A stretch of 64,000 nucleotides of DNA from an uncultured Oscillospiraceae bacterium (GTDB lineage Bacteria; Bacillota; Clostridia; Oscillospirales; Oscillospiraceae): NCBI GenBank assembly GCA_964384255.1, contig CAYLKH010000001.1, forward strand, positions 10,668-74,667, written 5' to 3'. Below the pieces are notes generated by a model. That model had not been told where the DNA came from, did not search any database, and worked only from the letters and a program-made list of their open reading frames with translations. The position numbers and the translations under genes are program-made. Positions 8,776 to 41,218 of this stretch are shown piece after piece; position 1 is the first letter of the stretch, and the number at the start of each line of letters is the position of its first letter.

Positions 8776-9921
8776 ATGACAGAAAAATTATACTATATCG
8801 ACAGCCATATGAAGACATTTACAGCTCGCGTCATAGCCTGCGACCCCGGCAAAAACGGGTTCCAGGTGATGCTTGACCGCACGGCGTTTTTCCCCGAAGG
8901 CGGCGGTCAGGGAGCGGACACGGGGACTTTGGGCGATGCCCGGGTGCTGGATGCCAGAGAAAAGGGGAGTGAGGTCGTCCATATAACCGATAAAGCCCTG
9001 ACCGTTGGCGAGACGGTCAGGGGCGAGATAGACTGGACATTGCGGTTTTCCCGGATGCAGCTCCACTCCGGCGAGCATATAGTATCGGGCATTATCCACC
9101 GACTTTATGGATATGAAAACGTGGGATTTCATATGAACGGGTCGGAAGCGACTCTTGACGCTGATGGATATCTGGACGAGGATCAGGTGCGCCTGGTGGA
9201 GCGAATGGCAAATGGCGCGGTTTGGGAAAACGTGCCTGTCAAAGCCGGATTCCCTGAGCCGGAGATATTGAAGACCATGGAATACCGCAGCAAGCTGGCT
9301 TTGACCGAAGGGGTGCGCATAGTCGAGATCGAGGGCTACGACCGCTGCGCCTGCTGCGCTCCCCACGTAAGCTTTACCGGAGAGATAGGGCAGATACGGC
9401 TGCTGACCCATATGCGCCATCGGGGCGGCACCCGGATGACCATGGTTTGCGGCGGAGGCGCTCTGGACGAAGCGGTTGCCAAATATTCGGCGGTGGCAGA
9501 GATATCCGCATCCCTGTCGGTGAAGCATCATCAGGCGGCGGAGGCGGTGCAGCGATTGAAGGACGAGGCGGCCCAGGCCAGATATGAGCTTAACCGGCTT
9601 CGTAAGGCTCAGGCGTTGAAGCAGCTGGATGGCCTTGAATATACCGACGGTAACCTTTGCTTTTTCGCCGAAGGGCTTGACAGCGATAGTCTGCGTACCC
9701 TTGTAAATGGAGCGGTGAGCCTGTGCGGTGGCATTGCTGCGGCTTTTTCAAAAAACGAAAAGGGCTGGAATTATATTATGGCCAGCAATACGGTAGACCT
9801 GAGGGCGAGCGCAAAGGACATCAACAGCGCCATCTCCGGCAAGGGCGGCGGCAGCAGCACCATGATCCAGGGCAGCTGCACCGCCGACCGGGAGGAGATA
9901 GAAAGGTATTTTAGGGGTTAG
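8776..9921 (+). CDS. alaX: Alanyl-tRNA editing protein AlaX-L (AlaRS editing domain plus DHHA1-like C-terminus)
   Basis: HSGEHIVSG (HxxxH) and CACCAPH (CxxxH) zinc motifs of the Thr/Ala-tRNA synthetase second additional domain. C-terminal GKGGGSSTMIQG is typical of DHHA1. AAGGAG RBS. Confidence 0.82.
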   Translation: MTEKLYYIDSHMKTFTARVIACDPGKNGFQVMLDRTAFFPEGGGQGADTGTLGDARVLDAREKGSEVVHITDKALTVGETVRGEIDWTLRFSRMQLHSGEHIVSGIIHRLYGYENVGFHMNGSEATLDADGYLDEDQVRLVERMANGAVWENVPVKAGFPEPEILKTMEYRSKLALTEGVRIVEIEGYDRCACCAPHVSFTGEIGQIRLLTHMRHRGGTRMTMVCGGGALDEAVAKYSAVAEISASLSVKHHQAAEAVQRLKDEAAQARYELNRLRKAQALKQLDGLEYTDGNLCFFAEGLDSDSLRTLVNGAVSLCGGIAAAFSKNEKGWNYIMASNTVDLRASAKDINSAISGKGGGSSTMIQGSCTADREEIERYFRG

Positions 9922-10298
9922 GATTTAGGGATTAGGGGCGCTTCCCGCAAGATTTATGCAATACTTGGGTAGTGCGCCGTAGGGGTCGGCGTCCTCGACG
10001 ACCCGCACGTTGCGTGATTGAGTTGTTGTGTCATGCGCACAGCGTCGCGCAACCACCCGTAGGGGACGCAAAAAATTGCTTCGCAATTTTTTGCGTCCCC
10101 TACGGCGCTCCCCGCAAGTTTTCGCAAAAATCTCGCGGGGAGCGCCCCTAATCCCTAGATCCTAAATCCTGACCCCTACTATGAGATTGCCACGTCGGCC
10201 TGTGGCCTCCTCGCAATGACATAAAGGGAACTGCGCTCCTCGCAATGACAGGCGGGGAGCGCCCCTGATTCCTGCCCCCTGAATCCTGAATCCTAACC
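9911..10298. repeat. TTAGGG-arm inverted-repeat element, copy B (composite: one full element plus a second core and right arm)
   Basis: Left arm AGGGGTTAGGATTTAGGGATTAGGGGCGCTTCCCGC (9913-9948) pairs with GCGGGGAGCGCCCCTAATCCCTAGATCCTAAATCCTGACCCCT (10135-10177). Inside are a 23-bp perfect hairpin at 10057..10105 and a second hairpin at 10106..10144. The second core 10183..10249 and right arm 10250..10298 follow. Confidence 0.72.
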
Positions 10299-11321
10299 CA
10301 TATTATCGATCGTTCCGCCACCAAGAACGGTATCGCCCACATAAAATACGGCTGCCTGACCGGCGGCGGGCGCCCGCTGAGGGGAATCGAACTTCAAAAC
10401 AGCGCTCCTGCCGTCGGTGGACAGGGTGGCCGGCTGGGGCTTTTGACTGTAGCGAAGACGGGCGGTAACGCTTACCGGCTCTGTGGGGACGTTGCCGGAA
10501 ACAAAGGTCACGTCCCGGACATAAACAGTGTCGGTCATTAATTCGGCCTCGGTCCCTACGGTGACGGTGCCTTTCGCCGGGTCCTTGCCGATAACATACA
10601 CCCGTTGGCCCATAGGCAGATCGAGGCCCCGGCGCTGGCCGATGGTATAGGCGGCAACGCCCCTGTGGGTCCCCAGTATTTTGCCGCTGCTGTCCACAAA
10701 GCTTCCGGGTTCCAGCTCCCGGCCGGTGTAGCGGGTTATAAAGCCCGGGTAATCTCCGTCAGGAATAAAGCAGATATCCTGACTTTCGGCCTTGTGGGCG
10801 GCCTCCAGCCCCAGAGAAAGAGCAATATCCCGAACCTGATCTTTAGTAAGCTCACCCAGAGGAAACAGCAGCCGATCCAGCTGGCTCTGGGTCAGGTTAT
10901 ACAGTACGTAGCTCTGGTCCTTTTTTGCGTCGGCGGCGGTGGAGATAGCCCAGTGACCCGGGCTGCCGGTTTTTCTTACGTAATGCCCGGTGGCCAGATA
11001 CTGGCATCCCAGCCTGTCGGCCAGGTCGAACAGAGCGCCGAATTTCAGGGCCTTGTTGCAGCTGATGCAGGGGTTTGGGGTCTCGCCCCGCAGATATGAA
11101 TCCACAAAGGGAGAAACTACGCATTTGTCAAATAGATCACGCATATCCACAGCGTGAAATTCTATGCCAAGACTGTTGCAGGCGCTTTCGGCGGACTGGG
11201 CTTCTGAACTGTCGGAAAGGAGCATGGTGGCCCCCACTACCTCATATCCCATATCCATAAGCAGCGCGGCGCAGACCGAGCTGTCAACTCCGCCGCTCAT
11301 GGCGGCTAAAACTTTGCTCAT
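10293..11321 (-). CDS. mnmA: tRNA-specific 2-thiouridylase MnmA
   Basis: AAMSGGVDSSVCAALL PP-loop, CISCN and ATGHY blocks. ATG 11321 follows GGAGG by 5 nt; the ORF track TTG at 11333 is less likely. Confidence 0.92.
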   Translation of the reverse strand: MSKVLAAMSGGVDSSVCAALLMDMGYEVVGATMLLSDSSEAQSAESACNSLGIEFHAVDMRDLFDKCVVSPFVDSYLRGETPNPCISCNKALKFGALFDLADRLGCQYLATGHYVRKTGSPGHWAISTAADAKKDQSYVLYNLTQSQLDRLLFPLGELTKDQVRDIALSLGLEAAHKAESQDICFIPDGDYPGFITRYTGRELEPGSFVDSSGKILGTHRGVAAYTIGQRRGLDLPMGQRVYVIGKDPAKGTVTVGTEAELMTDTVYVRDVTFVSGNVPTEPVSVTARLRYSQKPQPATLSTDGRSAVLKFDSPQRAPAAGQAAVFYVGDTVLGGGTIDNMG

Positions 11322-11350
11322 ATAGTCCTCCAAAAAATCATAAAAAAGTA

Positions 11351-15778: not shown

Positions 15779-16311
15779 TTTTCTTCTCCAGTTAACTGAC
15801 TGCGTACAAAATCCAGCACCTGAGGATACAGTTCGTCGCGGTTTTCTTCGGTGATATAAAAGCACTTTGCCTTTGGATGGCTGCGCACCGCCTGCAAAAA
15901 CGGAGTGTCCCTGGTTTTTACGGCGGCGATGACCGGTATATCACCGTCCAGCAGCTCAAGCACAGCAGAGCAGAAATCTTTTGCTTTGGACTCCATAAAT
16001 CCCAGCTCGTCCAGCAGGATGATACCGCCTTCCGGCACAGGCTGACGGAGCTTTGGGGCAAAGCGGTCGAACACCTGGGCGGACGCATCAAATCGGTGGT
16101 TTTTGCAATAACCCACCAGATTTTCTTCCGAGCGGCTCCGCTGCTGCCATGCGCTGTAGATATACACGGGACTGCCCAAGGCTTCATCGGCCAGAGCGTC
16201 CTCTTTCTTCGTTTCAAAACCGTAAACCGGCCGGCCGCAGGCTTTAAGCACCCTGTTTATAAGGGTGCTTTTGCCTACGCCCCGTTCACCAATAATAAGC
16301 GTATGCATCAT
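15775..16311 (-). CDS. P-loop NTPase, THEP1/DUF265-like
   Basis: MMHTLIIGERGVGKSTL Walker A, ILLDELG Walker B-like. 178 aa; 4-nt overlaps on both sides. Confidence 0.6.
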   Translation of the reverse strand: MMHTLIIGERGVGKSTLINRVLKACGRPVYGFETKKEDALADEALGSPVYIYSAWQQRSRSEENLVGYCKNHRFDASAQVFDRFAPKLRQPVPEGGIILLDELGFMESKAKDFCSAVLELLDGDIPVIAAVKTRDTPFLQAVRSHPKAKCFYITEENRDELYPQVLDFVRSQLTGEEK

Positions 16312-17444
16312 TTGAAAAAGGCGTTTGCGGTCAGGGTGGCATACTGCTCGTCGGTCAGGGTAACGCCATAGAACAGCTCGTAGTATTCGGTGACTTCTTC
16401 CTGAAGGTCATAGTCGCAGTATTCGGGATAGAGGATGCTGGGCAGCCACAGCAGCGCCAGATAGCGCTGGCAGGCGGGAGGAGCTACGGTCCAGTTGTGG
16501 GGCGAAGCGGGGGATTCCACGTACTTGCCGTTAACGATGGCGCTGATCTGGCTCCACACAGGGTCTTCGGTGGCGGTTTCATATACGCTGCCGTCGCCAA
16601 AGACGACGAATTCCGGATCCCACAGAGCTATCTGCTCCATATTGACAGTGTTGCCCGTGCCTTTACCGCTGGCGTTTTCGATAACTGCCAGATTGTTGAA
16701 CACCAGATTTATGACCTCGGCCTGAGACTGGCTTTCGGCAATAACGTTCAGACCGTCGTCACCCAGAGCGTAGATACCGTTGACCTTGTTGTCGCCTACC
16801 TGGTCCATAATGTCAAGAGCGCGCTGATAAACATCTTCGCACCATGAGGCCATTTCTTCGGCCTTTTCTTCACGGCCCAGCAGCTGACCCAGCTTGCGCA
16901 AGGCTTCGCCGTAATTGTCAAGACCTGCTTCGATGAAGACGCAGGTGATGCCGGTCAGCTCTTCGGTGGTGGCCAGTTCCTCTTCATAACCGGTCTTGGT
17001 ATAACCCATGTCGATGACCAGCTGAGCGTTGGTGGAGGCAAGGGCTTCTACATCAAGGTCGGCAGCACCCAGAACGGAGCCGAAATAGGTCAGCTGAGAC
17101 AGACGGTCATAGTCGGGGATGTATTCGGCCATATCGTCATACAGCTTGCCGCCCAGACCTGCTATCAGGTCGGGAGCAACACCCAGCAGCATGACCTGAG
17201 CCAGCTGGCCGGAGGGAACGACAGCGGTCAGGGGTTCGGTTATCTGAATCTCATGCCCCAGATCGTCTACAAAGGTGTATGGCTGGAAGCCTTCTTCAAC
17301 AGGTTCGGCAGCTTCTTCCACCGGGGTGGACACAGCAGGTTCGGACGAAGCTTCTGCTTCGGTGGTTTCGGCGGTGTTGGCACAGGCGGCAAGACTGAAA
17401 AGCATTGCGAAAGTCAGCAGCAGCGCCAAAAGTCTGGTTTTCAT
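16308..17444 (-). CDS. ABC transporter substrate-binding lipoprotein (cluster A / FecB-BtuF-MolA type)
   Basis: MKTRLLALLLTFAMLFSLAACAN lipobox, an acidic linker, then a periplasmic-binding-protein type 2 body. GAGGAGG RBS. Confidence 0.82.
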   Translation of the reverse strand: MKTRLLALLLTFAMLFSLAACANTAETTEAEASSEPAVSTPVEEAAEPVEEGFQPYTFVDDLGHEIQITEPLTAVVPSGQLAQVMLLGVAPDLIAGLGGKLYDDMAEYIPDYDRLSQLTYFGSVLGAADLDVEALASTNAQLVIDMGYTKTGYEEELATTEELTGITCVFIEAGLDNYGEALRKLGQLLGREEKAEEMASWCEDVYQRALDIMDQVGDNKVNGIYALGDDGLNVIAESQSQAEVINLVFNNLAVIENASGKGTGNTVNMEQIALWDPEFVVFGDGSVYETATEDPVWSQISAIVNGKYVESPASPHNWTVAPPACQRYLALLWLPSILYPEYCDYDLQEEVTEYYELFYGVTLTDEQYATLTANAFFK

Positions 17445-17502
17445 GGTTGGTTCCTCCTCGTTTAAATAAAATATGTTAAGCTTGTTGCTTACGTATTAGC
17501 AG

Positions 17503-17772
17503 TGGGTCAGGGGATATGGAACAGAGAACAGATGGTGAGTGCCTTCGGCACGGATTAAATCATATAAGTCGTTGTGTAGAGCGTTTTGCCATTGCGAGGA
17601 GCGCAGTACCCGTTTTGTCATTGCGAGGAGGCCAAAGGCCGACGCGGCAATCTCACCCCTTGCGAATTCGAGAAGTATCGATAAAACGCAACAGGCTTGG
17701 GTCAACAGTGTAAAATTTAAATATGTGCCGCAGGCACTAATCATCTGTTATCTGACCCCTGACCCCTGAATC
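17503..17772. repeat. TTAGGG-arm inverted-repeat element, copy D, inserted between two genes of one operon
   Basis: Left arm GGGTCAGGGGATATGGAACAGAGAACAGATGGTGAGTGCCTTCGGCAC, right arm GTGCCGCAGGCACTAATCATCTGTTATCTGACCCCTGACCCCTGAATC. Core 17588..17654 is 61/67 identical to the reverse complement of 10183..10249. Confidence 0.72.
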
Positions 17773-18533
17773 GGTACGCATACACGTACTCTGTCGTCGC
17801 TGAGACTGTGTATCTCAACATCGATGCCATAGAGCCTTGACATAAGCTCCGGCTGCATGACCTGCTGGGGAGTTCCCCAGGCCAGGACCTGACCGTCATG
17901 CATGGCAAGGATCCTGTCGGAATACATAAATGCCTGCTCCGGGTCGTGGGTGGTCTGCACAACGGCATAGCCGTCGGCCACAAGCCCCTTGACGGTCTGC
18001 ATGACCCGGATGCGGTTTCCAAAGTCCAGACTGGCAGAAGGCTCGTCCATCACCAGTATTTTTGCCTGCTGAGCAATGGCCCGGGCCAGCAGACAAAGCT
18101 GCTTTTCGCCCCCGGAGCAGAAGCCGTAGGGATGCTCTGCCAGATGGGAGATGTTCATCTTTGCCAATGCGCTGTGGGCAATCTCGATCTGCGCTTTGCC
18201 CGGAGTTGCCAGAGGGCCAAGCTGAGACGCCGTTCCCATAAGCACCATGTCCAGAACGGAATAATTGAAGGTGGGGTTATGGTACTGGGGGATATAGGCG
18301 ATGGAGCGGGCCAGCTCCTGAGCTGACATTTCGGCGACGTTCCGGCCGTCTATCTCGATGGTCCCGGACCTGGGCTTAAGCAGATTCAGAATGCAGCGAA
18401 ACAGGGTGCTTTTGCCAACTCCGTTGGGACCCAGTATGGACAGGAATTCCCCCCGGTGGGCCTCAAAGCTGATGTCCTTTAAAATCTGGCGTTTGCCAAA
18501 ATAAAAATCCAGATGCTGGACCTTTAAACTCAC
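17748..18533 (-). CDS. ABC transporter ATP-binding protein (FepC/BtuD/MolC type)
   Basis: GPNGVGKSTL Walker A, CSGGEKQL signature, ILVMDEP Walker B. The last 7 codons plus stop (IQGSGVR*) lie in the right arm of repeat D. Confidence 0.9.
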   Translation of the reverse strand: MSLKVQHLDFYFGKRQILKDISFEAHRGEFLSILGPNGVGKSTLFRCILNLLKPRSGTIEIDGRNVAEMSAQELARSIAYIPQYHNPTFNYSVLDMVLMGTASQLGPLATPGKAQIEIAHSALAKMNISHLAEHPYGFCSGGEKQLCLLARAIAQQAKILVMDEPSASLDFGNRIRVMQTVKGLVADGYAVVQTTHDPEQAFMYSDRILAMHDGQVLAWGTPQQVMQPELMSRLYGIDVEIHSLSDDRVRVCVPIQGSGVR

Positions 18534-21969: not shown

Positions 21970-22044
21970 AAGCATACCAAAACCAGCCTCGCCAAAACAA
22001 GGCGAAGCAAAAAACGGTCCTGTCTCCTTCTCAAATACGGAAAG

Positions 22045-22173
22045 CCATGTCGTTTCCAACATAACTCAGTGAGGGCGAAATGCATCCCCTCAGGCCGCTG
22101 GTCATAGCTCAGGTAACCCCTGATTTAATCATCGGTCACTTAGGCCTTAGACTCCACGGCTCGGAAACATATG
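22045..22173 (-). promoter_or_regulatory. Riboswitch-like structured leader; class unresolved, best guess Moco/Tuco RNA motif
   Basis: Minus-strand RNA: GUUUCC-GAGCC-GUGG...(long imperfect helix)...CCAGCGGC-CUGAGGGGAUGCAUUUCGCCCUCACUGAG...GGAAAC. The outer GUUUCC/GGAAAC helix, CCGAGCC junction, GGCCUGA and CACU elements match my recollection of RF01055. No B12 box. Confidence 0.45.
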
Positions 22174-22185
22174 TAATTATCAAAA

Positions 22186-22303: not shown

Positions 22304-22930
22304 TTATGCCTTCACATCTTCCCGCAGAGCGTTGGCTCTGGCGTTTTTGCTCAGCTTTTCCACCTCAAGGCCATAGTCATCCATAAGCTGATGGCAGATA
22401 TGGGGCAGCACAGAGCTGTCGCCAAACAGAAGCTCCAGCTCGACCTCGATAATAGGAAGGCGCCTGCTCCCGGCATAGAGTACGCCCACGTCACCGGCCA
22501 GCTCGATGCGGACCCCGTCGTCAAGGTAGAGGAAGTTGGTCCGGCGTTCAAATTCGGCGCCGCAAACCTCGATCAGTTTGCGGGTTTTGAGCAGATGGTC
22601 AAGCTCCCGGGGTGCGCCGATGGCCAAAAGGGCGGGGATGGCCTTTTCGATGGAGTCGGCTAAGCATTGCCACTCGTTGCGGGTAAAGACCTCGCCGTCG
22701 AAGCTGTTGGCGGTTTTGAGGGCGGCGACGGACTGGTCACCTTCTTTGCGCAGACGAAGGGTCCAGCGCCGGGAGGACAGCAGGCCGTCTTCGGTGTCAA
22801 AGTAGACTGAATGGAATTTTTTAACAGCAAATTCGTCCCGCATATACTGGGTGAGGTTGGGGTCAGCCAGTACGCGGTCAAGGGTTTGCCTGTCGGGTAC
22901 ACGAAGCTTCATTTCGATTTCGGTTGCCAT
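22304..22930 (-). CDS. CYTH-domain protein (triphosphate tunnel metalloenzyme / class IV adenylate cyclase fold)
   Basis: N-terminal MATEIEMKLRV contains the ExExK signature; 208 aa. Confidence 0.78.
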   Translation of the reverse strand: MATEIEMKLRVPDRQTLDRVLADPNLTQYMRDEFAVKKFHSVYFDTEDGLLSSRRWTLRLRKEGDQSVAALKTANSFDGEVFTRNEWQCLADSIEKAIPALLAIGAPRELDHLLKTRKLIEVCGAEFERRTNFLYLDDGVRIELAGDVGVLYAGSRRLPIIEVELELLFGDSSVLPHICHQLMDDYGLEVEKLSKNARANALREDVKA

Positions 22931-22995
22931 GGCGAAACCTCCTGATAAGTTATCTCACGGGTATATTTTATATCATTGCCGGGAAAATATCAATA

Positions 22996-23255
22996 GGATC
23001 CAGGGGTTAGGATTTAGGGGATAGGGATCAGGATTTAGAAACTGGAGATTAAGGAGCGTAACTGCAAGCATTTGCATTTAACACAACATTGTGGTTACGC
23101 AAGGGGAGAGATTACCACGTCGCACAGCTTCCTCGCAATGGCAGTCTCGGAAGTATCTGTTCTCTGCTCTGTGGTCAAACTGGGCAGTATCGGCAATACG
23201 CATAACCTCTCCCACACAGTCCCTAACCCCTGGATCCTAATCTCTAACCCCTGAA
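22996..23255. repeat. TTAGGG-arm inverted-repeat element, copy E
   Basis: GGATCCAGGGGTTAGG (22996-23011) is the exact reverse complement of CCTAACCCCTGGATCC (23222-23237). Core has CGCAAGGGGAGAGATTACCACGTCG (23098-23122) and CCTCGCAATGG (23130-23140), i.e. the shared core in inverted orientation. Confidence 0.72.
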
Positions 23256-23263
23256 ATTACTGT

Positions 23264-23292
23264 TTGCTATTTACATAAAACCGTGCTATAAT
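23264..23292 (+). promoter_or_regulatory. Candidate promoter for murA
   Basis: TTGCTA, 17 nt, TATAAT with TGc extended -10. Confidence 0.5.
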
Positions 23293-23355
23293 CTATGGGC
23301 TGGAGCTGTGCCTTCTCAGCGTCCGGCAATCTGTTAGTGATTCAGGGTATTAATT

Positions 23356-24642
23356 ATGGCTAAATATATTATAAACGGCGGCCGTCCCCTTTCCGGCGAG
23401 GTCACCATCAGCGGCGCCAAAAACGCTGCCGTTGCGATCATCCCCGCCGCCCTTCTGGTTGACGGCGTCTGCCGGATAGAAAATGTTCCCGCCATTTCTG
23501 ACGTCAGCCTTTATTTAAAAATATTCCAGCAGATGGGAGCCACCATCCGCAGGATCGACCGTTCGACCATCGAGATGGACTGCCGCGGCGTCCGCAGCCA
23601 TCGCCCTCCCTTTGATATCGTGTCCCGGTTCAGGGCTTCGTCCTACCTTATCGGCGCTATGCTTGGCCGTTTTGGCGAGGCTGAGGTGGCTCTCCCCGGG
23701 GGATGCGACTTTGGTCAGCGCCCTATTGACCAGCACATCAAGGGCTTTACCGCCATGGGCGCAGACGTTGAATTTTCCGGCGCTGCCGTTCACGCTAAGG
23801 CCAACGGCAAGCTCAGGGGCAATTATTGCAGACTTGATCTGGTTTCCGTTGGCGCCACAATGAACCTTATGATAGCGGCTGTACTGGCCGAGGGGACCAC
23901 CATCATCGAACCCGCTGCCAAGGAGCCTCATATTGTCGACCTGGCCAACTTCCTCAACGCCATGGGAGCCGATGTCTGGGGCGCTGGTACCGACACTATC
24001 AAGGTCAGGGGCGTTAAAAGGCTCCACGGCGGTACCTATTCCATCATTCCGGACCAGATCGAGGCCGGGACCTATCTGACTGCGGTGACCGCAGCCGGTG
24101 GCGAGGCCCTTGTTAAAAACGTTATTCCCAAGCATCTCGAATGCATCACCGGAAAGCTTATCGAAATGGGTGCCGAGGTGACCGAATATGACGATTCTGT
24201 CCTTATTCGCCGCACCGGCAGGCTGAAAAGAGCCAACATCAAAACAATGCCATATCCCGGATATCCCACGGATATGCAGCCTCAGGCAGGGGTGTGCCTT
24301 GCATTGGCCGAAGGCACGTCTATCATTACCGAAGGCGTTTTTGACAACCGGTACAAATATGTTGGCGAGCTTGTCAAAATGGGCGCTCAGATCCAGGTCG
24401 ACGGAAAGGTCGCCATAATCGAGGGCGTGGATTCCCTCAAAGGTTGCCCCATCAAAGCCTGCGATCTCCGGGCCGGGGCGGCAATGGTCATCGCTGCTCT
24501 GGCTGCCCATGGGCAGAGCGTGGTGGACGATGTGTTCCATATCGAGCGGGGATACGAAACCTTTGTTGAAAAGCTCAGCGGCCTTGGTGCCGACATCAGG
24601 CGGGTGGAAGATCTGCCTCCCGCAAGGGCGAAGGTATCCTGA
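23356..24642 (+). CDS. murA: UDP-N-acetylglucosamine 1-carboxyvinyltransferase
   Basis: MAKYIINGGRPLSGEVTISGAKNAAVAIIPAALL, an active-site loop LPGGCDFGQRPIDQH with Cys, and the two-domain EPSP-like length (428 aa). Confidence 0.93.
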   Translation: MAKYIINGGRPLSGEVTISGAKNAAVAIIPAALLVDGVCRIENVPAISDVSLYLKIFQQMGATIRRIDRSTIEMDCRGVRSHRPPFDIVSRFRASSYLIGAMLGRFGEAEVALPGGCDFGQRPIDQHIKGFTAMGADVEFSGAAVHAKANGKLRGNYCRLDLVSVGATMNLMIAAVLAEGTTIIEPAAKEPHIVDLANFLNAMGADVWGAGTDTIKVRGVKRLHGGTYSIIPDQIEAGTYLTAVTAAGGEALVKNVIPKHLECITGKLIEMGAEVTEYDDSVLIRRTGRLKRANIKTMPYPGYPTDMQPQAGVCLALAEGTSIITEGVFDNRYKYVGELVKMGAQIQVDGKVAIIEGVDSLKGCPIKACDLRAGAAMVIAALAAHGQSVVDDVFHIERGYETFVEKLSGLGADIRRVEDLPPARAKVS

Positions 24643-24725: not shown

Positions 24726-25058
24726 TTACTGCATCGGTATGGCTGCCCAGAAAACAAGATCCTCGTCGCCGTCATTAATAAGACTGTGACTGTGACCTTT
24801 GGGGCAGTAATGGCAGCAGCCGGCGAAGATGCGCTCTTCACCATCGTCATAAAGGGCCTTACCGCTGCCGCTGAGGACGAACACGATCTCGCAGTTAACA
24901 TCGTGGGTATGCATACCTATGGACGCGCCGGGAACAAGGCGGCCGTGCATTATGCGGTTGCCCCCGTCGTCAAGAAACATTTTTGCCATGGTTTCCTTTT
25001 CGCCGCCCTTGAACTGGGGAAAGGCTTCCTCGTTCATTTTGCTGAAATCAATAACCAT
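24726..25058 (-). CDS. Cupin-domain protein
   Basis: 110 aa with GASIGMHTHDVNCEIVFVLSG...CPKGHSHSLIN, the two cupin His-containing motifs. Confidence 0.75.
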   Translation of the reverse strand: MVIDFSKMNEEAFPQFKGGEKETMAKMFLDDGGNRIMHGRLVPGASIGMHTHDVNCEIVFVLSGSGKALYDDGEERIFAGCCHYCPKGHSHSLINDGDEDLVFWAAIPMQ

Positions 25059-28027: not shown

Positions 28028-28248
28028 GTCAGAGGGTCAGGGATCAGGGGCCGTAATTGTAAGCAATTGCGAAATATTTGAGGTTTTCAGTAGAACTGTC
28101 GTTGTGAAGCGGCAAAGCCGACGTGGCAATCTCACCCCTTGCGTGATTGCACGCGGTAGTTAAACGCATAGCTTTGCAGCTACGGACACTTAATTACCAA
28201 TCCCTAATTTCTAACCCCTGATTCTATCTGTTATCTGTATATCTGACC
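28028..28248. repeat. TTAGGG-arm inverted-repeat element, copy F
   Basis: Left arm GGTCAGAGGGTCAGGGATCAGGGG, right arm CCAATCCCTAATTTCTAACCCCTGATTCTATCTGTTATCTGTATATCTGACC. Core AGCCGACGTGGCAATCTCACCCCTTGCG (28116-28143). Abuts the stop codon at 28249. Confidence 0.7.
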
Positions 28249-29055
28249 TCAGGCATCCCGCGGCACGGTGTCGCGAACAAGGATAATGTGATCTGACACA
28301 GTGGCGGAGATGGTTTTGCTCTGGCCCACAGGGTCGCCGTCGTAGGTGTAGCGGTCAACGGCGCAGTCGGAATAATCCCGGCCATGGGCGATCTTGAGAT
28401 AACCGTCCTCTATCCGGGTGTTAAGGGTGGGGTCAAAAGCTATCCATTTGTTGTCCACATAGACCTCGGCCCAGACATGGGCTCTGGAAACCCCCTTGGC
28501 CAGACCGATAACGTACCTGGCCGGGATCCCGGACATGCGGCAGAAGGTGATGAATACCTGAACGTAGTCCCGGCTGACACCCCGGGCAGAGCGGAATGCT
28601 TCGGCTGCGGTGGTGGAGACGGCGGTTTCGCCGGGGGCATAGGTCATCATATTGTGGACAGTTTCCATCAGGCACTGGACCCGGGCATAAGGAACGGCGG
28701 GCAGCTGAAGATCCATCAAAAAGCGTTGCATTTCGCTGCTGGGGTTGGTAAAGCGGGAAGGATAAAGGAAGATGCGGTCCAGCTCTTCGTGGATCATATA
28801 TTTGCTGCAAAGCACGAATCCGGAGGCGGTGAAGCTGAAAGAGGTGTGATTTTTGTCGATACTGCCGCTGTAGGTCAGGTTGCCATAGCTGTCATATGCG
28901 GTGCTGACAGCGGCCTTGGGAGAAAGGGACAGAGTATGGCCATAGGTACGCTGGAATGGATAGGTGCCGGGCATACAGCGAAGCAGAAAATGGTGGCGCT
29001 TAACGGGGGCATCGAACACCCAGTTACAGCTGAAACTGAATTCATATTTTTTCAT
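28249..29055 (-). CDS. Transglutaminase-like (papain-fold) protein with Ser in place of the catalytic Cys
   Basis: RGVSRDYVQVFITFCRMSGIPARYVIG...AHVWAEVYVDNKWIAFDPT aligns to the usual GVCRDFA...GIPARYV...HAW.E.Y...W..FDPT core. AGGAGGG RBS. Confidence 0.8.
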   Translation of the reverse strand: MKKYEFSFSCNWVFDAPVKRHHFLLRCMPGTYPFQRTYGHTLSLSPKAAVSTAYDSYGNLTYSGSIDKNHTSFSFTASGFVLCSKYMIHEELDRIFLYPSRFTNPSSEMQRFLMDLQLPAVPYARVQCLMETVHNMMTYAPGETAVSTTAAEAFRSARGVSRDYVQVFITFCRMSGIPARYVIGLAKGVSRAHVWAEVYVDNKWIAFDPTLNTRIEDGYLKIAHGRDYSDCAVDRYTYDGDPVGQSKTISATVSDHIILVRDTVPRDA

Positions 29056-34124: not shown

Positions 34125-34452
34125 TGTCAGGGGTTGCGGATCAGTAATTAGTGCGGGCAGTGCCTGCGGCATGACCTAATCAGGAGACGGGGCAGGAAAT
34201 CGGTTTTGCCCAATAACTGACCCCTGATAACTAACTCATATAACCTACCCATTATATCATATACACATGACAGTTTGCTAGACCAAAATGCGGTCAGGCA
34301 GCGGTTTTAATATTAAATAACGCTGCCGATTTCCAGATGATGGAAACCGGCAGCGTTTCAGCGTGTCAAAATGATCCGCTGGACTATTTTGACAGCCTCG
34401 ATATGATATGACTATTGGTTATCTGACAACTAACTACTGATAACTAATCCCT
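34125..34452. repeat. Composite repeat region, copy G: arm/core/arm element, variable hairpin, GTGTCAAAAT hairpin (H2), extra right arm
   Basis: Arms GTCAGGGGTTGCGGATCAGTAATTAG (34125-) and CAATAACTGACCCCTGATAACTAAC (34210-). Hairpin AACGCTGCCG...CGGCAGCGTT (34319-34357). H2 GTGTCAAAATGATCC gct GGACTATTTTGACAG (34363-34395). Arm GGTTATCTGACAACTAACTACTGATAACTAATCCCT (34417-34452) overlaps the galE stop. Confidence 0.55.
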
Positions 34453-35457
34453 GTCGACATATCCTTCCGGGTTTTTTATCTGCCAGTTCCAGGTGTCGCG
34501 GCACATATCTTCGATGGTCCTTTCTGCCTTCCATCCAAGAACACGCTGAGCCTTGGAGGGGTCGGCCAGAATAACGTCGATATCCCCGGGCCGCCTGGGG
34601 CCGATCCGGCACGGGATGTGGATACCGGTAGCTTTTTCAAATGCGGCTACCAGCTCAAGCACCGTGGTGCCTTCGCCGGTACCCAGATTGATGGCGTCGC
34701 ACCCGGGCTTCATCTGCTCCATGGCCATAACATGGCCACGGGCCAGATCCATAATGTGCAGATAATCCCTCAGCCCGGTGCCGTCACGGGTGTCGTAATC
34801 GGTGCCATATACGTTGAGGTATGGCCGACGACCGATGGCGACCTGGGTGATATATGGCATCAGGTTCCCCGGTACGCCGGAGGGGTCTTCCCCAATCAGC
34901 CCGCTTTCGTGGGCGCCGATGGGATTGAAGTAGCGCAGCAGAACAGCGTCGATAAGTCCGGCGTCGCAGGCATCGGATATTATCTGCTCCATCATCTGCT
35001 TGCTCCTGCCATAGGGGTGAGAAGGCTGAGAAAGCTTCATAGTCTCGATAAAGGGAGCGGGCAGCTGGCTGCCATAGACCGTGGCAGAGGAGCTGAAAAC
35101 AAAGCTCCGGCAGCCGTGAGCAGCCATGGACTCCATGACCGTTATGGCTCCGCCAATGTTGTTGCGGTAATATTCCAGCGGATGAGCCACAGAGGCCGGT
35201 ACGGATTTAAGGGCGGCAAAGTGGATAACGGCGGTTATTTCGTTTTCGTCAAAAACAGTATCTACGGCTACGGGGTCAGTGATGTCGATCTTATACAGCT
35301 TTGGCGAGACTCCGGTTATCCGGGCGATGCGCTGGGCGACGATATCCGAGCTGTTGCGAAGGTCGTCTGCCAGAATAACGTCGTATCCCGAGTTTATCAG
35401 TTCAACGGCGGTGTGGGAGCCGATGTATCCGCAACCGCCAGTAAGCAAAACAGACAT
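34444..35457 (-). CDS. galE: UDP-glucose 4-epimerase
   Basis: MSVLLTGGCGYIGSHT (GxxGxxG), SSSATVYG, and YGRSK (YxxxK). Start taken at ATG 35457. Confidence 0.9.
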   Translation of the reverse strand: MSVLLTGGCGYIGSHTAVELINSGYDVILADDLRNSSDIVAQRIARITGVSPKLYKIDITDPVAVDTVFDENEITAVIHFAALKSVPASVAHPLEYYRNNIGGAITVMESMAAHGCRSFVFSSSATVYGSQLPAPFIETMKLSQPSHPYGRSKQMMEQIISDACDAGLIDAVLLRYFNPIGAHESGLIGEDPSGVPGNLMPYITQVAIGRRPYLNVYGTDYDTRDGTGLRDYLHIMDLARGHVMAMEQMKPGCDAINLGTGEGTTVLELVAAFEKATGIHIPCRIGPRRPGDIDVILADPSKAQRVLGWKAERTIEDMCRDTWNWQIKNPEGYVDRD

Positions 35458-35563
35458 GGTAAAGGTCCTTTCGTTGTTTATAAGGTGATATCGACAAAAA
35501 GTACGGTCGGGGGAGCTTTTGCCCCTGATGCGGTCATCGTTCACCTGAGTGGATAAGGCAGAC

Positions 35564-39762: not shown

Positions 39763-39870
39763 GCACAACTTGTATACAAAGGCCCGATGGCCTTTGTATA
39801 CAAGTTGTGCGGAACGAACTGAAGTTCGTTCGAGCGTGTCAAAATAGTCTGTTGGACTATTTTGACACGC
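39763..39870. repeat. Three consecutive hairpins, the last being the conserved GTGTCAAAATAGTC hairpin (H3)
   Basis: 22-bp perfect stem GCACAACTTGTATACAAAGGCC cgat GGCCTTTGTATACAAGTTGTGC (39763-39810). GAACGAAC tgaa GTTCGTTC (39812-39831). GCGTGTCAAAATAGTCT gtt GGACTATTTTGACACGC (39834-39870). Confidence 0.7.
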
Positions 39871-41218
39871 TGACGTTGTTTACCTGCTTTTTCCAGCGGC
39901 CGCTGAAATAGTATACCACCATGACAACGGTGGATACTGCCGAGGATATGGGAGCGGCCAGACCAAGACCCAGAAGGCCGCCGCCCATGGCGATGGCAAA
40001 AACGTAGCTGGCGGGGACCCGGATAAATACCGACGAACACAGGCTGACCATGGATGGGAACAGGGTCCTGCCGGTGCCGAGGGCGAAGTTGATAAATGCG
40101 TTAAACACCGCAACGGCCAGATAGTCGAAACAGAAGGTCCGCAGATAAAGCACCGACGACGCGATAAGCTCCGGGTCGGAGGTAAAGATGGACGAAAGCT
40201 GGGCCGAAAACAGCTGGACAACGGTGAACAGAACGATGTTTATGCCAAGCCCCATGGCAAGACCTGTCCACATGGTTTTGACCGCCCGGTCCGGTTTGCC
40301 CGCGCCAAAGTTCTGGGCGCACATGGCCGTTATGGCGTTGCCCAGAGATATGACCGGCAGGATCGCAAAGCTGGTTATGCGCCCGCCGATGGCTGAGGCT
40401 GCCGACCCCATGACCCCCAGCTGGTTTGCAACTATCAGGATAACGGTGAAGGACAGGGAGGTTATTACGTTCTGGACCGTGGTGGGTATGCTTATGGTCA
40501 GCAGCGTTTTCAGAGTTTCTCCATGGATGCGGAAGGAAGAAGGTTTGAAATCAAAAACAAAATCCGCCCGCTTGAGATATATCACGCAAAGCACAACGCT
40601 CAATGCCTGGGATATAATGGTGGCGCCCGCTGCACCGGCGGCTCCCATACCCATAACCGCTACCGCTATCAGGTCGAGAACGATGTTGGTTATGCTGGCG
40701 ATAATGATGAAGATAAAGGGGTGGCGGCTGTCGCCCATGCCCCGGAACACCGCGCTGAAAATATTGTATCCAAAAATGAAAACGAATCCCGAAGCGCATA
40801 CCCGGAGATAGCTTTTCGCTTCGCTCAGGGCTTCGGCCGGGGTGTTGATAAGGTCGAAGATCCGGTCCATAAAGATGTGGACAACGAATGTGAAGATCAG
40901 CGCCGCGATGAACAGAAACGTTATCAGGGTACCCACCGTCTTTTTGATGGCGTCTCTGTTGCCGGAACCCAGCTGCCGGCCAATTAGGACGGTGGCCCCG
41001 GTGCAGAAGCCGACGGCGCAGTTGGTCACAAGGTTGACTATGTTGCCTGCGTTGTTGACACCCGAAAGGCTGTATGTGCCGGCAAACTGGCCCACGATAA
41101 TAAGGTCCACAGCGCTGTACAGATTCTGTATCATCGTGCTGACAATAAGGGGCAGAGCAAAGCTGATAAGCAGCCGCGGCACACTGCCCTCGGACAGGTT
41201 GCGTTCAAAATTTGCCAT
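39857..41218 (-). CDS. MATE family efflux transporter (2 of 4)
   Basis: 453 aa, 12 TM, LISFALPLIVSTMIQNLYSAVDLIIVGQF. The last codons VSK plus TAG lie inside hairpin H3. Confidence 0.9.
   Translation of the reverse strand: MANFERNLSEGSVPRLLISFALPLIVSTMIQNLYSAVDLIIVGQFAGTYSLSGVNNAGNIVNLVTNCAVGFCTGATVLIGRQLGSGNRDAIKKTVGTLITFLFIAALIFTFVVHIFMDRIFDLINTPAEALSEAKSYLRVCASGFVFIFGYNIFSAVFRGMGDSRHPFIFIIIASITNIVLDLIAVAVMGMGAAGAAGATIISQALSVVLCVIYLKRADFVFDFKPSSFRIHGETLKTLLTISIPTTVQNVITSLSFTVILIVANQLGVMGSAASAIGGRITSFAILPVISLGNAITAMCAQNFGAGKPDRAVKTMWTGLAMGLGINIVLFTVVQLFSAQLSSIFTSDPELIASSVLYLRTFCFDYLAVAVFNAFINFALGTGRTLFPSMVSLCSSVFIRVPASYVFAIAMGGGLLGLGLAAPISSAVSTVVMVVYYFSGRWKKQVNNVSVSK

Follow-up and report, generated by a model that had tools for sequence, protein, structure and literature searches.

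The stretch of DNA analysed here (the window) is 64,000 nt long and corresponds to positions 10668-74667 of contig C1 of an uncultured Oscillospiraceae genome (G000; 2.21 Mb in 123 contigs, 52% GC, 93% complete). Genes were modelled crudely as the longest open reading frame (ORF), which gave 1,763 ORFs in the genome at a minimum length of 100 aa, and gene identities were taken from Pfam. A first-pass annotation of the window had claimed that repeats supply the last codons and stop codons of five genes, and each of the five positions was confirmed exactly to the base. On the plus strand, an alaX-like gene (8776-9921) ends with AGG GGT TAG at 9913-9921 inside the left arm of a repeat, and the convergent mnmA gene on the minus strand (10293-11333) ends with ATG GGT TAG at 10293-10301 inside a right arm. 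An ABC transporter ATPase of 261 aa (17748-18533, minus strand; Pfam ABC_tran, E = 2e-30) ends with ATT CAG GGG TCA GGG GTC AGA TAA at 17748-17771, that is I-Q-G-S-G-V-R-stop, and Q-G-S-G-V-R together with the TAA (17748-17768, minus strand) is encoded by the arm of a repeat designated copy D. The galE gene (34444-35544, minus strand) ends with GAC AGG GAT TAG at 34444-34455, the final D-R-D and the TAG being encoded by an arm that holds AGG GAT TAG at 34444-34452. The end of the MATE gene (39857-41218, minus strand), AGC GTG TCA AAA TAG at 39857-39871, coincides with the 3' arm of a palindromic hairpin (39833-39871), which thereby encodes S-V-S-K and the TAG. In addition, the TGA (28249-28251) of a transglutaminase-like gene identified with Pfam (28249-29055, minus strand) abuts a repeat, as had been noted; the arm next to this stop (28196-28251, minus strand) is 1-2 nt away.

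Copy D is located inside a conserved gene string. The gene order is MobB-like, methyltransferase, FmdE, FecCD permease, ATPase, copy D, substrate-binding protein, NTPase_1 and FMN reductase, and the genes are tightly packed both here and in the relative L017. The binding-protein gene of the same ABC system (16308-17444, minus strand; Pfam Peripla_BP_2) follows the ATPase gene in the relatives as well. A Moco (molybdenum/tungsten cofactor) riboswitch (22008-22178, minus strand; Rfam RF01055, scoring 64.9 bits where the gathering score is 36) heads this string of eight genes, possibly an operon for cofactor- or metal-related uptake. The placement of copy D within one ABC operon was therefore borne out by the order kept in relatives, by their spacers of 36-75 nt and by the riboswitch at the head. 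A scan of copy D for promoter-like and terminator-like sites gave none, and co-transcription through copy D is predicted to be likely, with a transcript carrying a long hairpin. Copy D overlaps the stop codon of the ATPase gene and is separated from the ATG of the binding-protein gene by 55 nt of non-repeat DNA (17445-17499). It thus differs from MIRU, an intercistronic repeat that reportedly covers the stop of the gene before it as well as the start of the gene after it and in this way keeps translational coupling.

The gap of 303 nt between the ATPase and binding-protein genes was correctly placed at 17445-17747, and the repeat proper spans only about 17500-17768. From its sequence and from genome BLAST, copy D is a mosaic repeat of 269 nt (17500-17768). 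On the outside it has inverted arms made up of (CAGGGGT)2, then CAGATAA-type units and a GTGCC...GGCAC hairpin, and its interior contains a nested high-copy module, GAGATTGCC..CCTCCTCGCAATGACA..CTCCTCGCAATGGCA. The inner 70-90 nt have more than 100 genomic copies of 82-95% identity in BLAST, and the outer half has about 10 copies of about 76% identity. Between copy D and the binding-protein gene, a short relic of the native 3' end of the ATPase gene (CTAATACGTAA; 17489-17499, minus strand) was recognised by comparing the sequence by eye with that of the relatives L014-L017; it includes the presumed old TAA of the ATPase gene (17489-17491, minus strand). The relic is followed by the native intercistronic spacer (17445-17488, minus strand), conserved in relatives, in which the binding-protein gene has its ribosome-binding site, AGGAGGAAC. 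In this comparison, made by eye and not with an alignment program, homology stops after ...GTACCG (Val-Pro) and resumes at ...AATACGTAAGCAACAAGCTTAA...AGGAGGAAC...ATG, where ...AATTCTTTGTAAGCAAGTAAGCTTAA... of the relatives corresponds to ...AATACGTAAGCAACAAGCTTAA... just downstream of the insert. The native sequence ...ACGTAAGCAACAAGCTTAA...AGGAGGAAC is thus kept immediately past copy D, and the insert of about 269 nt falls among the final three or four codons of the ATPase. In relatives whose ATPases are 85-88% identical, the spacers between the two genes are 36, 39 and 75 nt long, compared with 303 nt here. Judged from these junctions, copy D is an insertion near the very end of the ATPase coding sequence. 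A second sample (Logan SRR10277277) also has this filled site, differing by one SNP. In exact sequence look-up, the ATPase matched only the same filled allele and the binding protein gave no match, and a metagenome scan for the junction GTGTATGCGTACCG N0-30 GTAAGCAACAAGCTTAAC found no empty site of the same species. All comparisons of filled with empty sites are therefore made between species, at protein identities of 61-97%.

The most abundant 10-14-mers in G000 fall into three modules: the heptamer arms (AGGGGTTAGGATTTAGG...), the module TCCTCGCAATGACA / GAGATTGCCACGTCG, and the palindrome CGTGTCAAAATAGTCC-N4-GGACTATTTTGACACG. The arms are short arrays of units of 7-8 nt and were searched for as at least two such heptamer units. 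The chance level was obtained from first-order Markov shuffles; reversal of the genome was unsuitable as a control for this pattern because GGATTAGG-type units are nearly identical when read backwards. In the 2.21-Mb genome 153 arms were found, against 5-7 per shuffle. The unit counts genome-wide are 150 for TAGGATT, 81 for TAGGGGT, 67 for TAGGGAT and 40 for CAGGGGT, and CAGATAA represents a second unit type. The number and the order of units vary among arms. It had been stated that the arms are rich in TAG and TAA in several frames, and the counts agree: read inward, 100 of the 153 arms (65%) close all three frames within about 27 nt, whereas this happens in 0.5% of random segments matched for length; read outward, 90 of the 153 (59%) do so. 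Twenty-eight pairs of arms are inverted, 59-596 nt apart, around varied cores, and in this respect resemble the inverted ends of a classical MITE, although the arms are imperfect and variable in length. The module GGCAATCTC stands directly before 36 arms, and a logo of the arm flanks gave no clear target motif. The G-quadruplex (G4) potential of many arms is doubtful, as many of the units, such as TAGGATT, have no more than GG. In Rfam no family matches these repeats, the Moco riboswitch being the sole match. The arm motif occurs 96 times in G000 and 38 times in the sister species G001, and sampling of 79 other genera of the family turned up essentially none; among the genera sampled, it is confined to one genus of Oscillospiraceae.

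Of the 1,763 ORFs, 25 run into an arm from its outer side and have their stop codon there. To recognise shadow ORFs among them, a codon-usage score gave no separation, but Pfam matches and composition did, and five of the 25 are probably spurious, having no Pfam match and an antisense-like composition. About 20 credible genes therefore end inside an arm. The first TAG of the arm is the stop codon itself in 13 of the 25 ORFs (ten when three doubtful ones are left out), while neighbouring positions each have only about one arm start. Ninety-two arms face the 3' end of a gene, 37 of them within 9 nt of the stop, and arms that face a start begin 5-40 nt upstream of it. By class of gap, arms are present in 37 of the 1,024 co-directional, 24 of the 318 convergent and 14 of the 298 divergent ones, or 3.6-7.5% of each class, and the position of copy D is nothing out of the ordinary. 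The claim that repeats supply gene ends thus stands for the arms, with about 20 credible genes, but not for the hairpins as a habit. The palindromic hairpin family has 50 copies genome-wide, usually 12-60 nt past a stop, and was rejected as a common supplier of stops because only the MATE gene has its stop within a copy (1/50).

To see how these ends compare with those of genes lacking the repeat, the C-terminal tails of ten genes were compared with those of the sister species G001 and G002 and of more distant relatives. Seven tails are longer here, by 1-9 aa, three keep the stop position, and none is shorter. The ATPase continues after its RVCVP motif with IQGSGVR, where relatives have an RVCVP-type motif and usually four further residues (+3). 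The galE product ends GYVDRD here and GYV in both sister species (+3), where ...GYV is followed by an ordinary terminator hairpin. The MATE protein ends KKQVNNVSVSK against KKQVAVK in the sister species (+4), the hexokinase-like protein AAAAALLKKQISGQGSGAR against AAAAAILTNN (+9), the TtcA-like protein YWEVDGRE against YWGIE (+3), and the thiolase VIEMID against VIEML (+1). The PHP-like protein extends 10 aa past the aligned VLKSL here and 4 aa past VIEAL in the sister (+6). In five of these, namely the ATPase, galE, MATE, hexokinase-like and TtcA-like proteins, canonical repeat units encode the added residues. For the ATPase, 98 homologues have an RVCVP-like motif, 49 of them with four further residues and none ending GSG or GVR; the tail found in G000 is absent from all 119 homologues compared. 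Homologues of the ATPase are typically 258 aa long, against 261 aa here. The three genes with unchanged stop position are a 493-aa protein on contig C89, whose tails are identical and whose TGA in the sister is replaced by the first TAG of the arm here, the alaX-like gene (YFRG here, FFYN in the sister) and mnmA (TIDNMG here, TITVNN in the sister); in the last two the differences are limited to the last 2-4 residues. The overlaps would be coincidental if orthologues had the same C-terminal residues and stop position, and this refutation therefore fails for seven of ten genes, whose tails are altered; in three of ten the stop position has not moved. Genes whose stop and last codons lie inside a repeat and whose orthologues end differently are the mark by which repeats supplying 3' ends can be recognised, and such genes are present here.

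We consider it probable, at roughly 80%, that stop-rich repeat ends have been inserted at or just inside the 3' ends of genes and that only near-neutral events survive. The intergenic DNA of this genus would have been colonised by small non-coding mosaic repeats whose ends are inverted arrays, mostly of TAGGATT, TAGGGGT, TAGGGAT or CAGGGGT and in some cases of CAGATAA. Where such an element lands at a stop codon, or a few codons before it, the ribosome would enter the arm, add 0-9 arm-encoded residues and halt at the first in-frame TAG or TAA. Two or three units are enough to stop every frame, because the units hold TAG (TAA when read from the opposite strand) and their length of 7 is not divisible by 3. 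The protein would be barely altered because the tails involved are naturally variable, which would account for about 20 genes now ending within repeats. Copy D may be regarded as one such insertion, with a second repeat nested in it and with the downstream ribosome-binding site spared. From this pattern we infer that the elements arrived by transposition-like insertion and that selection filtered the surviving insertions.

A different origin is conceivable, in which the arrays arise and turn over in place beside stops, through slippage or gene conversion, and overwrite the last codons, the cores being inserted separately. Several observations point in this direction. The target-site duplication expected of a MITE is not visible in the flanks of the 28 paired elements, nor could one be read from the junctions at the ATPase site. 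Copy D has no full-length paralogue in a BLAST search of G000, where a MITE would have near-identical copies, and its inner module is far commoner than its arms. PF01797 (Y1_Tnp), the sole transposase profile run, gave no match in the 93%-complete G000 and matched 6 of 14 reference genomes as a control; this search thus found no RAYT of the kind that defines a REP/REPIN-RAYT system. Unit number and order vary, as described above, and the first TAG of the arm serves as the stop in 13 of 25 ORFs, even if three of the 13 look spurious. The alaX-mnmA spacer of G001 (L019/L028) is also suggestive: it has AT-only heptamer arms, TAATTAATAA and CAGTTAACAG, around a core hairpin GGGACGTCGAGGACGCCGTCCCCTAC that is related to the hairpin at 9980-10005 of the window, so that the spelling of the arms differs between the species while their richness in stops, their position and the stop positions of both genes are kept. 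However, slippage adds units within an array and does not overwrite flanking codons, the ATPase site looks like a clean insertion of 269 nt with both native flanks retained, and the orthologous galE and MATE sites of the sister species are without any heptamer array. Turnover in place is for these reasons judged unlikely.

It is considerably less probable still that the arms are selected as punctuation, acting as fail-safe stops and as RNA stems for mRNA processing or stability, with copy D setting how much ATPase is made relative to binding protein. Intercistronic REP and ERIC elements are known to alter mRNA stability, closure of all three frames is very frequent in both directions, the arm types of both species are rich in stops despite their different sequence, and RNA folding pairs the two arms of copy D (-109 kcal/mol, z = -4.7). 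But the relatives run the same operon without the insert, only the small fraction of gaps given above carries an arm in each class, and survivorship predicts stop-rich arms equally well, since selection would clear 3' ends of any element that lacks stops. Simple coincidence, with repeats filling short gaps, native stops resembling the first unit and proteins left unchanged, is just as hard to maintain: the alaX-like, mnmA and C89 genes do share their stop position with the sister species, and any element of 150-300 nt must abut genes where the median co-directional gap is 38 nt, but seven of ten tails are longer, the ATPase tail occurs in none of 119 homologues, and the repeat-encoded tails already refute coincidence for the ATPase, galE, MATE, hexokinase-like and TtcA-like genes.

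Insertion of stop-rich ends followed by survival of near-neutral events thus remains the preferred reading, and it can be taken one step further. The elements might be aimed at stop codons and not just tolerated there, their stop-laden ends being an adaptation that makes insertion at a gene end harmless. The pile-up on the first TAG, the lack of any shortened tail in ten comparisons and the stop-rich arms of the sister species are consistent with such aiming, which we nevertheless regard as speculative and probably not the case. If it were true, the elements would represent a self-insulating, stop-codon-seeking class of bacterial repeat.

The phenomenon is real, and the supply of gene ends by repeats is already documented in other bacteria. 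REP/BIME elements are high-copy intergenic palindromes that lie just past stops and sometimes between the cistrons of ABC transporter operons. They differ from the elements described here in consisting of a single imperfect palindrome and not of tandem heptamer arms, and their association with RAYT has no counterpart in the Y1/RAYT search of the 93%-complete G000. The closest outcome has been reported for QMITE1 and QMITE2 of Coxiella burnetii, non-coding inverted-repeat elements with an overlap of 1-50 bp at the 3' ends of genes that include ubiB, pntAA, mutT, nagZ, recN and ruvB (Wachter et al. 2018, PMC5896051). They supply the last residues and the stop, so that the residues change and the size of the protein hardly does, although one copy of QMITE2 extends the C-terminus of EnhC by 33 aa; it was also suggested that the stem may be a substrate of RNase III (PMC5896051). 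The elements of both organisms are thus alike in being non-coding inverted-repeat elements that furnish gene 3' ends. However, the QMITEs have conventional terminal inverted repeats where tandem heptamer arrays are found here, QMITE2 has copy-specific direct repeats where no duplication was seen here, and Coxiella belongs to another phylum.

The closest placement has been reported for the G-rich heptamers GGGAATC of Xanthomonas and GGGGA(C/T)T of Nostoc, which are tandem, mostly intergenic and often arranged as convergent inverted pairs (Rehm et al. 2015, PMC4692102). Their G-rich strand is on the coding strand 0-50 bp from the stop, which some copies overlap, or else on the non-coding strand just upstream of starts (PMC4692102). 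The same geometry was found here, with tandem G-containing units, proximity to stops and convergent pairs. By our own reading of the units, however, GGGAATC and GGGGAYT are free of stops in every frame, whereas the units here (TAGGGGT, TAGGATT) carry TAG or TAA and end any incoming frame. The arms here also enclose shared high-copy core modules, and the host is a Firmicute-type gut anaerobe. For the Chunjie MITE of Geobacter uraniireducens (Chen et al. 2008, as cited in PMC3184786 and PMC5896051), an overlap of several copies with protein genes is reported, as are highly stable RNA folds of about -98 to -130 kcal/mol. Chunjie reportedly carries terminal inverted repeats of 21 bp and direct repeats of 9 bp, neither of which was found here. 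The first-pass annotation had compared the behaviour with Correia, RUP and ERIC-type elements, and its statement that such behaviour is known was right in substance, well-documented parallels being the QMITEs of Coxiella and the heptamers of Xanthomonas and Nostoc. No new mechanism is therefore proposed, as the outcome is known from the former and the placement from the latter. What the present case adds is that the C-termini of about 1% of the genes in this genus are written by repeats. Stop-rich arms let an element occupy a gene end or the interior of an operon at almost no cost, and this low cost helps explain how more than 150 copies are accommodated in a compact 2.2-Mb genome.

Several further observations were made on the repeats. 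On contig C16 a palindromic CAGATAA-type element of 59 nt (24825-24883) holds the ends of a sigma-54-type activator gene and a LysR-type regulator gene, which converge and end 10 nt apart, one in each arm; both proteins end D-N-R-stop from mirrored arm units, and the LysR-type gene had no orthologue in the five relatives searched. On contig C14 a gene on the minus strand (22782-24128) passes a CAGATAA-type arm without meeting an in-frame stop and continues into the GTGCC hairpin core (...ITDNREQMRSACGTHSYFS...), so that its repeat-encoded tail is longer than all others. In a 267-kb sample of the sister species G001 (L039-L053), TAGGGG-type arms mostly stand directly after the T-run of a terminator hairpin, and none of 14 arms overlaps a stop; the habit of overlapping stops may accordingly be stronger in the species of the window than in G001. 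Many contig ends of the G000 assembly (C18, C25, C45, C63, C88, C93, C114 and others) lie, in their first 40-140 nt, within a palindromic hairpin or an arm. The assembly is thus broken by repeats at many contig ends, and the real copy numbers are therefore probably above those counted. Finally, the ORF calls of a dUTPase-like gene (C4, 40030-40599) and of a small protein (C37, 5610-6056) were extended upstream through TCATTGCGAGGAGCG...GGCAATCTC, which resulted in the false N-termini SLRGAKRRGNL or SLRGAQRRGNL. Such 5' over-extension through repeats is a likely source of annotation artefacts, as exemplified by the spurious N-terminus SLRGAKRRGNL... of the dUTPase-like protein.
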